64,000 bases of DNA from Eledone cirrhosa (GCA_964016885.1 OZ024746.1:97588001-97652000); one strand, 5' to 3'. Positions 1,970 to 52,874 are shown, numbered from the stretch's first letter. Notes: generated by a model from the sequence alone, not told the origin. Translations and numbers: made by a program.

Positions 1970-2615
1970 AGACTGATGATAGCAAGCTGATGAAACCATA
2001 GCAGTGAAAATAGTTGGTGCTTTGGGTCTCTGAATTATCTTTTTGATGAAACTATAACAGTGAAATTATCTAGTTCTTTGGATCCTTGTGCTGTTGGTCC
2101 CTGAATTATCATTCTGATGAGACCATAGAAGTGAAAATATTTAGTGCTTTGGGTCCCAGCACCATTTCCCCAATGAAACCATAGCAGTGATAATACCTGG
2201 TATTTTGGGTTTCTGAATTATCTCTCTGATGAAACCATAGCAGGGAAAATACCTGGTGCTTTGGGTCCCTGAATTGTCTCCCTGATGAAACCATAGCAGG
2301 GAAAATACCTGGTGCTTTGGGTCCCTAAATTGTCTCCCTGATGAAACCATAGCAGGGAAAATACCTGGTGCTTTGGGTCTCTCAATTGTCTCCCTGATGA
2401 AACCATAGCAGGGAAAATACCTGGTATTTTGGGTCCCTAAATTGTCTCCCTGATGAAACCATAGCAGGGAAAATACCTGGTGCTTTGGGTCCCTCAATTA
2501 TCTCTCTGATGAAACAGTAGCAGGGAAAATACCTGGTGCTTTGGGTCCCTCAATTATCTCTCTGATGAAACAGTAGCAGGGAAAATACCTGGTATTTTGG
2601 GTCCCTCAATTATCG
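1970..2615. repeat. 56-bp minisatellite, about 10 units, degenerate on the left
   Basis: Unit CTGATGAAACCATAGCAGGGAAAATACCTGGTGCTTTGGGTCCCTCAATTATCTCT; consecutive starts at 2226 and 2282. Confidence 0.95.
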
Positions 2616-7621: not shown

Positions 7622-8048
7622 TATTGTTTTCATATACTGAATTGTAAAAGCTTAATAATACCCTATACCTAAAACGAGGGATCATCTTTGTAGGAGCCTG
7701 GCCTGCTAGAAATAAGAGCTAAACAATGTCTGAAATAAACCTTTTAGTTCCCTCTTACAGCATGTAGATATACAGAAACTCCTTCTCTATTCTATCTGCT
7801 AGGGCTGCAGTGTGGTGTGGCCAGTGTGTGGCCCCCATTTGCTTATAATAGTGAGAGATGGGGAGAGTGAGAGAGACAGAAGCAGTGACTATACCCCCAT
7901 AATTATAATTATATATATATATATAAGGAATCACAACAAATAGCACCCAGTCCACACTGTAAATGTGGTTGGTATTAGGAAGGGCATCCTGCTGTAGAAA
8001 TCTGGCCAGAAACAGTTGAATGTGAACGTTAGACGACGATGATAATGA

Positions 8049-8085
<37 letters not shown>

Positions 8086-8256
8086 TGGTGCGTGTGTTAC
8101 TTATATATATATATATTTACCTGGTGCGTGTGTTACTTTTACCTGGTGCGTGTGTTTCTTATTGGCAACATGACCCTCCCAAAGTATAACAATATATATA
8201 TATATATATATATCAATGATATTAATAAATGGAAACTAAATTTATAAAACCATATT

Positions 8257-8317
8257 TATTTTATTATATATATTTCAAGGGTACCAACATTTTGGTACGC
8301 CCTCATCAGATAAAATA
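8257..8317 (-). ncRNA. Minimal type I hammerhead ribozyme motif (mirror copy)
   Basis: Same core on the minus strand; stem I extends to 8 bp (TATTTTAT/ATAAAATA). Confidence 0.65.
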
Positions 8318-8446
8318 CAAAATTTGTTTTATAAATGGTGACATACCCCAGAAACCCGACCTTATCGGTTCAGGTTCAGTTTGGAACCTGAACCGATAAG
8401 GTCGGGTTTCTGGGGTATGTCACCATTTATAAAACAAATTTTGTAT

Positions 8447-8501
8447 TTTATCTGATGAGGGCGTACCAAAATGTTGGTACCCTTGAAATATATATAATAA
8501 A
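8447..8501 (+). ncRNA. Minimal type I hammerhead ribozyme motif
   Basis: TTTAT-CTGATGA-stem II (GTACCAA/TTGGTAC, weak base)-GAAA-T-ATAT-ATA-ATAAA. Stem I is TTTAT/ATAAA, loop 3 is palindromic, and predicted cleavage is after 8496. Confidence 0.65.
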
Positions 8502-8616
8502 TATAGTCTCCATTTATTAATATCATTGATATTATACTCCAGAAAACTTGTAGAGTGCTTCGAATCTGTTATGAATAAATTTGTTGAATAACCAACAAAT
8601 TAAATATCTCTTTGCT

Positions 8617-10478
8617 TCATCATCATCATCATCTTCGTTTAACGTCCATCTTCCACGCTAGCATGGGTTAGACAGGAGTTGTCCCACTTGAGGCAAGGTT
8701 GGTCGGGTGACCGTGTCTCGCTCATATAGGACTATCTGGCAGGTTTTCTACGGCTGGATGCCCTTCCTAACACCAACCAAATTTACAGTGTGGAACTGGG
8801 AACTTTTACCGTGTTACCTACACGGCCACATTACAGCGTGGACTGTGTGTTTTTTCTCGTGACACCTACACGATCTCGATCTCATTATCTCATTTATTTG
8901 GACTGGATGTTGTGGTACCAACTTTACAGAGAGAGGGTGGTGTTGGTGGGAGTGGGAGGATAGGGTAGGTGTAGTGGATTGGGGTGTATATTTGGTTAAG
9001 AGGTGCCTACTGACTGTAGGTTTTGCTTTGTACATAGGCAAGGCGGGTCATCTGTATTACTGTGTAGCGCCAAAGATCTCGGTCCAGTGACATTGTCTCA
9101 GAGAGGTGCAAGTGTGTAAGGTTGGAATTTATCAGATCATCCCAGGTTTTTCTGGTCTACCTACTTTTCTGGGTCTAACTACCATCAATTTTGATCGCCC
9201 TGCACTTTTATATACAGCTGTCGTCTTTCATGCGCATCACGCAGCCATACCAACATAGTCTTCTCTCGAGTAAAGAGCATCTGACCCCTCTTATTCCTAA
9301 TTTCTCACTTAGTTCATTTATGCTTTGCCGTTCACGTATATTACTATTACACATCCAAAGGAGCATGCATGCTTCATTCCTTTCCAGTCTACGCAGGTCC
9401 TCTGCACATAATGCCCATGTCTCACTGCCATGTAGCATTGCTGTTCGTATACAAGCATCATACAATCTGCCTTTCATTTTTAGAGAGAAACCTTTAGTGG
9501 CCAACAGCGATATAAGCTCTCTGAACTTTTTCCATCCCGTTCTGACTCTGGTTACTGTACTTTCAGAACACCCGCCACCACTGCTGATTTCATCACCCAG
9601 GTAACGGAAAGTTTCTACTATTTCTATAGAACCATCTGGGCAATAGAAGGGGCTAGTATCCTGTGGACACTTGCTACCTATTGCACCTGAGCATCGGCCA
9701 CATATAAAGTCTACGTTCTTAGATAGTTTACCTGTGATCCTACTACATCTTTTATGTACCCATACTTTGCATTTGGGACATAAAATTGAATTTCTGCCTA
9801 CTCCTTTCCTACACACTGAGCAAGGCCATTTCCCTGAGGGTACCTGTGCCTTATTTTCCTTTCTACAAACTAGGACTTTAGTCTTAGACAAGTTAGCTTT
9901 AAGGCCTTTTGATTCTAGGCCATGCTTCCATGTTTGGAATTTCTTTTCTAGTTCAGCCATTGATTCAGCTATGAGCGTTAGATCATCTGCGTACAGGAGT
10001 TCCCATGGGCAGCCGGTCTTGAACTTCTCTGTTATAGCCTGAAGGGCAATAATAAATAGGAGGGAGCTAAGGACAGAGCTTTGGTGAACACCAACTTTTA
10101 CACTAAATTCTTCACAATATTCATTGTTAATTCTAACCTTACTGACTGTTTCATTATACATAGCTTGTATAGCTCTCACAAGCCATTCATCTACACCTAG
10201 TTTTCTAAGAGCCCACCAGATAATGGAGCGGGGGACTCTGTCAAAGGCTTTTTCCAGGTCTACAAAAGCTAAGTAGAGGGGTTTACTTTTAGCTAGGCAC
10301 TTCTCTTGTAGTTGTCGTACAAGGAAAAGAGCGTCTGTGGTACTTTTACCTGACACAAACCCAAACTGCATTTCATCTAGATCAATTCGCTCTCTGATTA
10401 GTTGCGCTATAACTCTTTCTGTGACCTTCATGATCTGGTCAACTAACTTAATGCCTCTATAGTTTCCTCTATCTTGCT
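8617..10478 (-). mobile_element. 5'-truncated RTE-clade LINE (family RTE-1)
   Basis: Reverse transcriptase ORF followed by a 3' UTR and the tail CCCATGCTAGCGTGGAAGATGGACGTTAAACG(ATG)n; the 5' end abuts (TA)n. Confidence 0.92.
9030..10478 (-). pseudogene. RTE reverse transcriptase with Cys-rich (PHD-like) insert, premature stop at 9208-9210
   Basis: Motifs NYRGIKL, QFGF, AFVDLEKAFDRV, GVHQ.SVLS, LLYADD, CSVC...C.KC..WVHKRC...C.RC, FRYLG and MLHGSETW. Homology continues past the stop (TWDDLI...DRDLWRY). The ORF-track N-terminus MCVCMHIYIY is a microsatellite artefact. Confidence 0.9.
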
Positions 10479-11104
10479 TATATATATATATATATATATA
10501 TATATGCATACACACACACATTCCTATTCTAAACTGGAAACCCTCAAAGCTTCCTTTTTTTAAATATTGCTATTAAAAGTAGTTTGAAGATTCTGAAATT
10601 TATTTAGCTCTTAAAAATGATCTAAAGAGAGGTTTCTTATTTCAAATGTGTGTGTGTGTGTGTGTGTGTGCGCGCACACACACTCAACAGGCCTCTGTAC
10701 AGTGTCTATTTATCAATTTTCACTGACACAACACTCTTCAACCTGCGAATGTAGTAGAAGACACTTATGCAAGGTGCTACACTTTATAACTGAACGCAAA
10801 ACTACATAGTTGCCAAGTGAACTCCTTAAGCACACAGCCATACTTGCACTTATATTTATTTCATTCCCAAAACATCTTAATACTTGACTAATTAGTTATT
10901 ATAAGCAGATTAGTTCAATCAGGGGAAAAGTATTATCTCATAAGAGGCAAGCTGAAGTACAGTCATTTGTACTAATAATGAAGTCCTGCCCTGATCTTGA
11001 TAACAGACAATTGTAATTTCTAAATTGTCAAATACAATATGTGAATAATCTTTCTGCATATGAATAGATAAATGTTTAGAATTAAATATACTACACTCCA
11101 TGAA

Positions 11105-28924: not shown

Positions 28925-29322
28925 ATCATCATCATCATCATCATCGTTTTACGTCCGTTCTTCCCCGCTAGCATGGGTTAGACGGGTTGTCCTGTTGTGG
29001 GCAGTGTCCGGTCGGCTGACCTTTTCTTGCTCATACAAGAACTGATTCTGGCTTGATTTCTACAGCTGGATGCCCTTCCTAACACCAACCTCATTTACAG
29101 TGAGTGGTGGGTGCTTTTTTGCCGTGGCGCCTCCACGACCTCTTTGCAGTGGAATGATAGGGACCCTAGTCCCTATCATCTCATTTCTACAGCTGAGTAA
29201 ACTGGAGCAATGTGAAATAAAGTGTCTTGCTCAAGGAAACAACACATCACCCAGTTCGAGAATTGAACTCACAACCTTTCGATTGCAAGCCCAATGCTCT
29301 AACCACTAAGCCATGCACCTTC
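28925..29322 (-). mobile_element. SINE family B with RTE-1-type tail
   Basis: Same head and body as 19342-19724, but the tail is GTCTAACCCATGCTAGCGGGGAAGAACGGACGTAAAACG(ATG)n. Confidence 0.85.
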
Positions 29323-43025: not shown

Positions 43026-43313
43026 AATGTTTCAAATGCCATATTGATAATGGTTTCTGATTTAGGCACAAGGCCAGCAGTTTGAAGGGAAGAGAAAAAT
43101 CTACTAAATTGACCCCAGTTCATTACTGGTACTTTATTTTATCGACCCTGTAAGGATGAAAGGCAAAGTTAACCTCGGTAGGATAAAAAAAACAGAAAGT
43201 AAAGGGCCGTAACTCTATGCTACTCAGCGTGTTGTCTGGCGCCCTACTGATACTAATAATGACAAAGTTATTCTACTTAATTTCTCTATATTGTTCATTA
43301 TTTAATAAAAACG

Positions 43314-43500
43314 TGCGGTGAATTGGCAGTATCGGTAGAGGGTCGGATGCCATGCTTTGTAACATTGAGTTACGGTCCTTTCCATTCTGAGTTCAAATCC
43401 TGCCGAGGTTAACTTTGCCTTTCGTCCTTACGAGGTCGATAAAATAAAGTACCAGTAATGCACTGGGTAATTGCTGGCCTTGTGAAAAAAAGTAGAAACA
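43314..43500 (+). mobile_element. SINE family A
   Basis: Full consensus; TSD ATTATTTAATAAAAA. Confidence 0.85.
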
Positions 43501-44296
43501 ATTATTTAATAAAAATAATTGAAAATCATGAGCAATGTTTTTCATTATAAATATAGTCATGAAGGGTTTAATCTGTTAGACACGCAGCGACTAACAACAG
43601 AATGTTTTAAGTCTGTGTGTCTGACATATATGCGTAGCTTGTGAATAAAAAAATTCAAGGGATGTCGCTGGCCGTGGTGATCGTCAAACATGTTTTGTAA
43701 TGTATTGTCTTATTGGCTAATCAACCAATGAGAGTAATTGTTGCTCAAAAGCATACTCCGTTTTGTTTGCAAGTTTATTTATCTTTTCACTTTCGGATCT
43801 TCCTTCTGTATTTCGTTGTTTATCATCAAAATATTTTTCTCGTTTTGGTAAGTTATATTGTTAATTTATACATGATTTTTTAAATTATATTAACTATTTT
43901 TTTTTTCAGTTCGTTATAACATACTTATAATATTGGTTGTATCATATTTACTTGTATATTTGTCAATATTATTGTTCGTATTATGTTAGATTATTTTATT
44001 ATTATTATGTTAGATTATTTTTTTATTATTATGTTAGACTATTTGTATGTAATATTTAATTTTTATTAATTGAACTATAACAAATATTATGTAAAATATA
44101 TTTATTTAATATTGTTTTTTTGTAGTTGTTTATATTAAAAGTCTGAAAATATTTTTATACATCTTATAATAATATTTATAAGATCATTTATAAAATAACA
44201 ATTATATAATCTAATTACATTATAACGATGATTTATTATTAATATATATCATGTTTAACTAGAGTTATTACAAGCGTTACTTTAAAAAAATATTAA

Positions 44297-44892
44297 ACTA
44301 GACCTGAAAAATACGCAAGCTCAAAAGAGCCGCAGAATGTTATAATAAACCTTCAAAAGTGTGGGACTAGAGTTGTTGCTCAAAAATATTGTAATCATTA
44401 TCTATCGTACATACATAAAGGGCGGTGGATTGGCAGTATCAGTAGAGGGTCGGACGCCATGCTTTCCAGCATAGTTACGTCCCTTTACGATCTGAGTTCA
44501 AATCCCACCGAGATTGACTTTGCCTTTCATCCTTACGGGGTCGATAAAATAAAGTACCAGTAATGCACTGGGTATTTGCTGGCCTTGTGCCTAAAGTAGA
44601 AACAATTATCTATCGTACATACTGTGGCATCATTTATAAAAATATCACAATAAATACATCTAGAGTGTACGATAGATAATTGTTTCTACTTTAGGCACAA
44701 GGTCAGCAAATACCCAGTACATTACTGGTACTTTATTTTATCGACCCCATAAGGATGAAAGGCAAAGTTAACCTCGGCGTACAATAGATAATGATTACAA
44801 TATTTTTGAGCAACAACACTAGTCCCACACTTTTGAAGGATTATTATAACATTCTGTGGCTCTTTTGAGCTTGAGCATTTTTCAGGTCTAGT
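44297..44892. mobile_element. Foldback/MITE-like element with 114-bp inverted arms and two nested SINE A insertions
   Basis: Arms 44297-44410 / 44779-44892; SINE A at 44420-44604 (+, full length) and 44681-44778 (-, 5'-truncated). Confidence 0.8.
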
Positions 44893-52294: not shown

Positions 52295-52441
52295 TATTTT
52301 CCGTTGTGTTGTAATATAAATATTACACACAGTAGATTGACAGCTCACGTAGAGTTTGCTCGACGGTTCCAGTTGTAGTTCCAAAAGTAATCCGGAGAAA
52401 AATAGAAAGATTTGAATGGATACAGTTTAGTTGAAAGGAAT

Positions 52442-52562
52442 TTATTGACACGTGTTTCTATAACAGTTACATAACCTGAAAACAGCTGCTATCTACAAAG
52501 TATTAGTTATGCAGATATTCAATATTTCAATGTTATTATTTACTGTCATTTCATCAGAATAA
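52442..52562 (-). ncRNA. Type I hammerhead ribozyme motif (mirror copy)
   Basis: Reverse-complement arm of 52651-52771. Confidence 0.72.
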
Positions 52563-52650
52563 TATTACTGAGGACCTGTTTGGTTTTTATAGAGAATATT
52601 AGGAGGGAGGGGTGAAGTTGTTAGAAGAATAGTTGAGGTCCTCAGTAATA

Positions 52651-52771
52651 TTATTCTGATGAAATGACAGTAAATAATAACATTGAAATATTGAATGTCT
52701 GCATAACTAATACTTTGTAGATAGCAGCTGTTTTCAGGTTATGTAACTGTTATAGAAACACGTGTCAATAA
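52651..52771 (+). ncRNA. Type I hammerhead ribozyme motif with long stem II insert
   Basis: TTATT-CTGATGA (52656-52662)-stem II ATGACAGT/ACTGTTAT-GAAAC-ACGT-GTC-AATAA. Stem I is TTATT/AATAA, loop 3 is the palindrome ACACGTGT, and predicted cleavage is after 52766. Confidence 0.75.
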
Positions 52772-52806
52772 ATTCCTTTCAACTAAACTGTATCCATTCA
52801 AATCTT

Positions 52807-52874
<68 letters not shown>

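Follow-up and report, generated by a model that had tools for sequence, protein, structure and literature searches.

Insertions of EN+ Penelope-like elements (PLEs) have been described in which an inverted, 5'-truncated copy lies next to a forward copy and a tail is present at one end (PMC8557442, in the parts cited here). Among the C-terminal EN+ PLEs, the Hydra clade, to which Hydra-1_Obim of Octopus bimaculoides belongs, is recognized by CxCX5C, CxxC/CxH, RWK and DKT motifs and by insertion at (TA)n, its elements being generally shorter than 3 kb (PMC8557442). CxCX5C, CxxC/CxH, RWK and DKT-type motifs are all visible in the supplementary alignment of that paper, octopus family included, as far as the cited part of the alignment extends. 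File S2 of the same paper gives Hydra-clade hammerheads of the form 'ctgatgat ... tgaa', with an extra base on each side of helix II, and cnidarian motifs in which helix III has 3-4 bp and helix II is short (PMC8557442, in the entries cited here). PLE promoters lie in the upstream pseudo-LTR, or pLTR, according to the part of PMC6765202 cited here.

The minimal hammerheads of PLEs provide a second point of comparison: within the sections of PMC4209133 cited here, Cervera and de la Pena list the G10.1-C11.1 pair as highly conserved, and these hammerheads are reported to cleave poorly in vitro. Type I hammerheads also occur in metazoan non-LTR retrozymes, which are short, non-coding, PLE-derived sequences (bioRxiv 10.64898/2026.07.22.740005, in the part cited here).

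Here, we analyzed a palindromic unit of 405 bases (8213-8617) in the genome of Eledone cirrhosa, positions being those of the window, the whole 64,000-nt stretch of DNA that was studied. The unit is very probably an immobile insertion product of an EN+ PLE with Hydra-clade motifs, made of two 5'-truncated 3' ends set head to head, likely in one integration at (TA)n. Taken alone, this is an ordinary transposon scar; what it offers is a clean and very abundant example (at least 19,000 arms) of PLE integration products, which are poorly understood.

Architecture of the locus

The segments 8260-8377 and 8384-8501 are exact reverse complements over 118 of 118 positions around the spacer AGTTTG, with no outward extension of the exact pairing, in agreement with the preliminary description, which had reported perfect 118-bp arms around a 6-nt loop and outer segments diverging by an indel. 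That indel is a deletion of 19-20 nt in the right arm (8384-8529), visible against both the left arm and the family. In a repeat search allowing mismatches, the arms pair over 8240-8377 / 8384-8521 (93%) and over 8210-8245 / 8497-8532 (94%), which sets their mismatch-tolerant extents at ~8213-8377 and ~8384-8529. By the family frame, AGTTTG is the continuation of the left arm, whose 5' end, at the palindrome centre, reaches the usual family start (..TCCAAACT); this arm corresponds to positions ~651-831 of a 918-nt reference cut from locus L077, and the right arm begins ~10 nt further into the element. A single 93-nt read contig, from a public run of unstated kind, spans the palindrome centre (8319-8411). 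The features of the locus are listed in Table 1.

Table 1. Features of the palindromic unit and its immediate surroundings (window coordinates)
Feature	Position	Strand	Evidence or remark
(AT)n microsatellite	8192..8212	.	borders the inverted copy at its outer (3') end, on the left; sequence
Left arm: inverted 5'-truncated copy, last ~165 nt of the parent PLE, without tail	8213..8377	-	
Intact hammerhead-type motif	8226..8345	-	fold, descriptor, covariance model, covariation
Junction AGTTTG between the two copies	8378..8383	.	
Right arm: forward 5'-truncated copy, same 3' end, 19-20-nt internal deletion	8384..8529	+	
Damaged hammerhead-type motif	8438..8509	+	deletion leaves 5 bp of helix I
One-sided tail (~80-85 nt, unpaired)	8530..8617	+	family alignment
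Neighbour, outside the element: 3' end of a young LINE-type retrotransposon	8618..10569	-	

Immediately to the left of the unit, window positions 8066-8160 are occupied by a minisatellite in which TTTACCTGGTGCGTGTGTTACT units alternate with (TA)n, and part of it (8143-8207) was found again beside other copies (L006, L024 and L025). Farther along the window, a second palindrome at 52404-52809 has 174-nt arms, 99% complementary, with 58 nt between them and (TA)n on the right only. Both of its arms contain CTGATGA-N22-GAAA, and a hammerhead in this palindrome was accepted neither by the relaxed descriptor nor by the covariance model R1, both presented below. The core spacing, once described as identical in the two palindromes, differs, with N26 at the present locus against N22 in the 52-kb element. 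Three more inverted-repeat pairs, of 71-114 nt, lie inside 1.8 kb at 43114-44892 and may be further fold-back insertions, while a tRNA-like match on the minus strand at 29252-29315 (30.8 bits, for a gathering score of 29) may be the head of a tRNA-derived SINE.

Abundance, boundaries and flanks of the repeat family

The full unit is repetitive, with 3,700 first-look candidates in the genome, 40 of which were scored and showed 77-93% identity. A 25-nt pattern spanning the 5' half of the hammerhead (GTATTTTATCTGATGAGNGCGTACC), searched with at most two mismatches, gave 9,609 forward and 9,611 reverse matches in the 3.0-Gb genome, so that the arms number at least 19,220; the reversed pattern, used as a control, gave 0 matches. 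An alignment of 27 copies displays sharp ends, the left one reading TCAATGATATTAAT... and the right one ...AAATATCTCTTTGCTT, with a TA run at the left flank in 21 copies, at the right flank in 22 and at both in 16. Counted over sampled units, a TA-rich 3' flank was present in 27 of 38 single units.

Among the 27 aligned copies, counting the one in the window, 18 lose family homology at 8617, as do at least 25 of 29 fetched loci, so the tail was not cut by the neighbouring insertion. The tail had previously been described as running up to an RTE insertion; its end at 8617 is instead a family boundary that the neighbouring LINE did not set. This LINE, recognized by RVT_1 (E 4.9e-29) plus a PHD finger, has its 3' end, (GAT)n-like, at 8618, where other copies of the family carry the right (TA)n, and it recurs at 39 other places with 96-97% identity, starting within query bases 1-8. 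An inverted piece of 60-90 nt from the same LINE repeat family lies at 7931-8017, and the PLE stump thus sits between two inverted fragments.

Parent element and clade

The arm forms the last ~170 nt of an element of ~3.6 kb whose ORF carries reverse-transcriptase (RT) and GIY-YIG motifs. This parent was traced through widely spaced inverted arm pairs, seven regions of this kind being fetched. Long inverted arms were found in two of them, L077 and L078, and in L077 they measure 849 bp, are 95% alike and enclose 2.27 kb. The five others showed nothing beyond isolated arms or fragments, in L079, L082 and L083, and segmental duplications, in L080/L081. The internal part of L077 is itself repeated (4,597 first-look candidates, 40 of them scored) and runs colinearly into the arm in the fetched copies, which end either at ..CATTGATA or after the tail. 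A BLAST comparison of the arm with 30 PF01541 loci and 16 long-ORF PLE loci yielded no parent, its only hits being the chance neighbours L071 and L063.

ORFs in the copies span 350-474 aa. Loci L102 and L099 encode the RT motifs FIQMDIANYYSSI (FxxxDIxxYYSSI pattern) and LYRDD, a CNCRDESNC linker (CxCX5C), the GIY-YIG nuclease motif VYKCTV...YIGATSTKFKGRWYNH and the arrangement CHLC..E..N..CRH, namely CxxC and CxH around a conserved E and N, CCHH being absent. The ORF protein P0002 reads CNCRDESNC, CHLC..E.. and ..N..CRH. A Pfam search of the ORFs named no family, and the RT and EN assignment therefore rests on motifs, homologues and an Atlas lead: the nearest Atlas clusters (score 0.97, a lead only) are RT / HTH_animal / GIY-YIG proteins of cnidarians, molluscs and arthropods. 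Sequence searching recovered 36 homologues, mostly of 550-720 aa and 28-40% identical, whose alignment keeps RWK, DKT, CxCX5C and CxxC/CxH and reads MRWKA and ADKTTNFY; the decayed L102 copy has RLRWRA and SDKVNN, hence RWR and DKV where the homologues have RWK and DKT. The distance from the ATG region to the arm end is ~3.6 kb in L102 and L097, above the '<3 kb' of the Hydra clade. These sequence data support a parent that would be an EN+ PLE carrying Hydra-clade motifs, the clade being assigned by these motifs. The preliminary description spoke of an independent PLE family. Its PLE part stands, the same sequence ending elements with RT and GIY-YIG, and the notion of a separate palindromic element falls, the palindrome being two 5'-truncated copies of the parent's 3' end.

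The tail, which contains a 9-bp hairpin (AAUUUGUUG/CAACAAAUU), directly precedes a TATAAATA box and the ORF ATG in full-length copies. In L097, L086 and L106, the arm end and tail are followed by ATAAATAG and, ~45 nt on, by the ORF ATG, after which the first residues include an RWK-type motif. Lying just before a TATA box and ATG, the tail is therefore the pseudo-LTR segment ahead of the next unit's promoter; its position fits the location published for PLE promoters in the upstream pLTR (PMC6765202, in the part cited above).

Tandem arrays of ~3.53-kb units were also observed at C1:91474419-91487154 and C1:437200456-437213157 (L118-L125, L132-L142). In each unit an ORF of 784 aa is open and shows homology to PLE proteins of the Hydra type, and a protein search gave 96,857 first-look candidates. 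No CTGANGA..GAAA was found downstream of the 784-aa ORFs on the same strand.

Insertion shapes and probable origin of the head-to-head pairs

Inverted pairs were sought at other copies, as had been suggested initially, in 60 units chosen from the first perfect pattern matches listed on contig 1, loci already examined being excluded. They recur: 22 of the 60 units are head to head, 20 of them with one tail, one with two and one with none. Short single arms account for another 22 units (15 without tail, 7 with) and long arms, which start upstream of reference position 600, for the remaining 16 (13 without tail, 3 with). On the 5' side of eight of the 15 single arms that lack a tail lies an inverted fragment of the tail end, ~7-60 nt long; it adjoins a TA repeat in five of the eight, so they are extreme pairs. 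A single arm beside ~520 nt of unrelated GC-rich sequence, with (TA)n around the whole (L071:5440-6147), may represent a pair whose halves derive from distinct RNAs.

The centre of the pairs varies among copies, either arm being shorter by up to ~25 nt and the longest arms reaching ..(CT)ATCCAAAC. Mean arm identity is 95.7% within a copy, compared with 92.9% between copies. Together with the one-tail pattern, these two features argue that the pair is made at integration and not copied from a palindromic master. In the scheme we propose, the GIY-YIG nuclease would cut at (TA)n and both cut DNA ends would prime reverse transcription on element RNA, one of them at the AU-rich site that follows ..CAUUGAUA and the other where the tail ends (..GCUU/AUA), after which the cDNAs would be joined to each other at their 5'-truncated ends. 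The insertion shape is the already described, usual dead-on-arrival product of PLEs.

A long inverted repeat flanked by TA could also be read as a fold-back MITE or TIR DNA transposon, or a Helitron-like element, targeting TA. The TA-rich flanks, which leave TSDs undecidable, would suit such an element, as would a first dinucleotide TC and a hairpin 16 nt before the 3' end. The termini TCAATGATA.. and ..CTCTTTGCTT, however, are not mutual inverted repeats in most copies, the centre differs from copy to copy and the arm makes up the 3' terminus of an RT/GIY-YIG element. Helitron-type 3' ends follow the rule CTRR, whereas the 3' end here is ..GCTT. We therefore regard a DNA transposon as hardly credible, on the grounds that the termini differ and the centre varies; a TIR DNA transposon with TSDs, named in the preliminary description as a case that would refute its reading, is not borne out by termini that differ in the common one-tail form.

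The starts of the arms are less easily accounted for. Among 82 arms, 35 start at reference positions 640-670, a hot spot that simple random 5' truncation does not explain. Fall-off of the reverse transcriptase at the hairpin GAACCUGAACCGAUAAGGUCGGGUUUC may produce it, as an alternative to a defined RNA end. The latter would be expected if the short unit were a non-autonomous retroelement in its own right, SINE-like or related to retrozymes, with an RNA of ~155-235 nt starting from ..ATCCAAAC and borrowing PLE enzymes. Besides the clustered starts, short single arms with a full 5' end do exist (L071, L153, L190), and a candidate octamer-like ATTTGCAT lies ~55 nt upstream of the start in the parent. 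The 19,220 arm matches also outnumber the 4,597 first-look candidates for the internal part, although these two counts come from different search modes and are not directly comparable. Against such an element, every intermediate length is found, with 16 of the 60 sampled units starting upstream of position 600; the short arms contain no sequence beyond the parent's 3' end; and neither the palindromic nor the single insert has an evident upstream promoter. We consider a separate short element improbable, but the lack of an explanation for the start hot spot keeps it alive.

Metazoan retrozymes as such are said to have been described by Cervera and de la Pena in 2020. The present copies are not tandem but head to head, a partial tandem being seen in one of the 60 sampled units (L170), and a retrozyme was ruled out on this basis.

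We thus retain the joining of two 5'-truncated 3' ends of a PLE as the preferred reading. The near-absolute one-tail rule, the variable junctions and the preferred 5' end seen in the sample constrain models of how RT and GIY-YIG activities generate inverted insertions.

A hammerhead-type motif with a non-canonical helix II junction

Both arms contain the two conserved boxes of a hammerhead, CTGATGA at 8452-8458 (+) and 8309-8303 (-) and GAAA at 8485-8488 (+) and 8276-8273 (-), and the copy is intact in the left arm (minus strand) only. The core positions C3-A9 (CUGANGA), G12 A13 A14, A15.1-U16.1 and H17 are present, and they are invariant in an 8-sequence alignment; CTGATGA is intact in 83 of 94 arms. 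In the minus-strand motif, helix I comprises 8 AU pairs and an 11-bp distal helix, and helix II has 11 layers, the basal one being G.U and the fourth a C.C mismatch. GAAA is followed by an A-U pair closing the palindromic UAUAUA and then by A17, the predicted cleavage site lying between 8265 and 8264. The plus-strand motif keeps the core, with A17 at 8496, but the deletion has removed most of helix I on its 3' strand, so that the site after 8496, put forward for a cleavage assay in the preliminary description, would be a poorer choice than the minus-strand motif.

Energy minimization of the 120-nt RNA gave these same two helices, I and II, and, apart from the core, the same three-way junction. 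Two copies folded as a dimer reach -50.6 kcal/mol against 2 x -22.2 for the monomers, hence 6.2 better, via an intermolecular AUAUAUAU helix, a gain that would be expected from the dimer model of PLE hammerheads (PMC4209133, in the part cited here). Cleavage would require a dimer held together by the palindromic helix III, in transcripts of full-length or tandem elements. A transcript through the whole palindrome is predicted to fold into a hairpin of -247 kcal/mol, and this ~150-bp hairpin would bury both motifs.

A relaxed descriptor, which was written after the motif had been seen and permits one mismatch, matched these two sites only in the 64-kb window, and 2 of 200 first-order Markov shuffles also matched; a strict descriptor requiring 5 consecutive helix II pairs missed the motif. 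Rfam reported no hammerhead in the window at gathering scores, and for 8100-8700 at E up to 10 it gave generic hairpin miRNA models and, again, no hammerhead; control PLE loci with canonical-looking hammerheads were equally blank. Window positions 1973-2584 hold about ten tandem copies of a 56-nt unit, each with CTGATGAAACCATAGCAGGGAAA, which account for most of the excess of CTGANGA..GAAA in the window (19 for 5.2 expected). No convincing helix II was found by eye in these units.

Related motifs occur in other, unrelated PLE-associated sequences (L134, L135, L138 and L064). A covariance model, R1, built from 8 sequences, found further motifs (L075, L139, L050 and L066) and scored the minus-strand motif, which belongs to its training set, at 98.3 bits and the plus-strand motif at 73.8 bits. 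In a 15-sequence alignment fitted to the model, eight rows of which also trained it, helices I and II show compensatory changes at 14 of 20 pairs, in 51 cells and across several sequence types. None of 500 shuffles reached the 14/20 result, and slid controls gave 6-8 cells. Within the family, no covariation was detected beyond that of shuffles, although the pairs hold in 92.9% of cells; the covariation check called for in the preliminary description thus came out positive across 15 sequences of several types and negative within the family alone. Helix III keeps its palindrome in three different sequence forms (UAUAUA, UAUGUA and UGAUCA).

The junction of helix II with the core departs from the canonical form. 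The G10.1-C11.1 pair is absent from the window copy, which has a G.U there; over 94 arms, this layer is G.U in 85, A-U in 5 and G-C in 1, and the one after it pairs as A-U in 52 arms and as G.U in 22 and stays unpaired in 18. Taking the first layer for an additional N.U makes the following pair G-C in L064, L134 and L138. The C of the C.C mismatch is invariant in the 8-sequence alignment. The hammerhead-type motifs L064:1730-1807, L050:3132-3228, L066:5539-5624, L134:119-199 and L138:1-79, otherwise unrelated in sequence, have in common an extra U before GAAA and an invariant C.C in the fourth layer of helix II. This shared feature was not seen in the literature consulted, in the parts cited here.

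The claim of a hammerhead-type motif is thus upheld, with a full core and with helices that covary across sequence types. The sequence evidence supports a type I hammerhead that is non-canonical beside helix II, for which RNA cleavage is predicted. The cross-family covariation backs a hammerhead variant off the canonical helix II junction, with its C.C, and provides a concrete candidate for cleavage assays.

The motif could nevertheless be structurally conserved and not self-cleaving in vivo, serving for instance as an RT recognition or dimerization element. The extra N.U layer beside the core, the invariant C.C mismatch and the poor in vitro cleavage of PLE minimal hammerheads (PMC4209133, in the part cited here) are all in line with such a role. 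The 3' ends of the DNA copies, furthermore, lie downstream of the predicted cut, which means that the copied RNAs were uncut there. This alternative is rather unlikely in our view, considering that all catalytic core nucleotides are kept across sequence types and that helix III keeps its palindrome in three different sequence forms, as a dimeric ribozyme needs.

More speculatively, and with a low probability, the hammerheads at PLE 3' ends could form a distinct sub-class, marked by the extra N.U layer beside the core, the invariant C.C in a long helix II and a palindromic helix III that changes in sequence, and they may serve chiefly to bring two template RNAs together as a dimer with two-fold symmetry. 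If this were true, each cut (TA)n end would copy one RNA, which would explain the frequent head-to-head pairs.

Comparison with known systems

The parent resembles the Hydra clade in its CxCX5C linker, in having CxxC and CxH around E and N without CCHH, in the RWK-type and DKT-type motifs of its homologues, in its (TA)n preference and in the one extra base on either side of hammerhead helix II. It differs in length, at ~3.6 kb with a ~1.4-kb 3' UTR against less than 3 kb, in a minimal palindromic helix III where the cnidarian families have 3-4 bp, and in a helix II of 10-11 layers instead of 3-6.

With L1, the likeness would be that both target ends prime reverse transcription. Twin priming of L1, reportedly described by Ostertag and Kazazian in 2001, is said to have both ends of the cut target prime and to give an inverted structure. 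The inverted piece of L1 comes from a more 5' part of the RNA, whereas here both arms are the same 3' end. Retrozymes share with the present unit a short, non-coding, PLE-derived sequence with a type I hammerhead, but they are head-to-tail tandem repeats and the copies here are head to head.

The closest match in shape is with the published insertions of EN+ PLEs (PMC8557442, in the parts cited here), which likewise place an inverted 5'-truncated copy against a forward copy, extend one end with a tail, occupy (TA)n sites that leave TSDs unreadable and carry a hammerhead in the pseudo-LTR near the 3' end. The tail is nevertheless longer here (~85 nt vs 30-40 bp), both copies are cut down to ~150-165 nt and the arm starts cluster strongly at one position. 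As for the motif itself, it has in common with the minimal PLE hammerheads (PMC4209133, in the parts cited here) the type I topology, a helix II that is long and a helix I that is weak and made of AU pairs only, a base after A9 that is unpaired or extra, and a palindromic helix III/loop 3, while its 10.1-11.1 pair is G.U in the window copy and A-U in most of the family instead of G-C, an extra U precedes G12 and helix II holds an invariant C.C mismatch.
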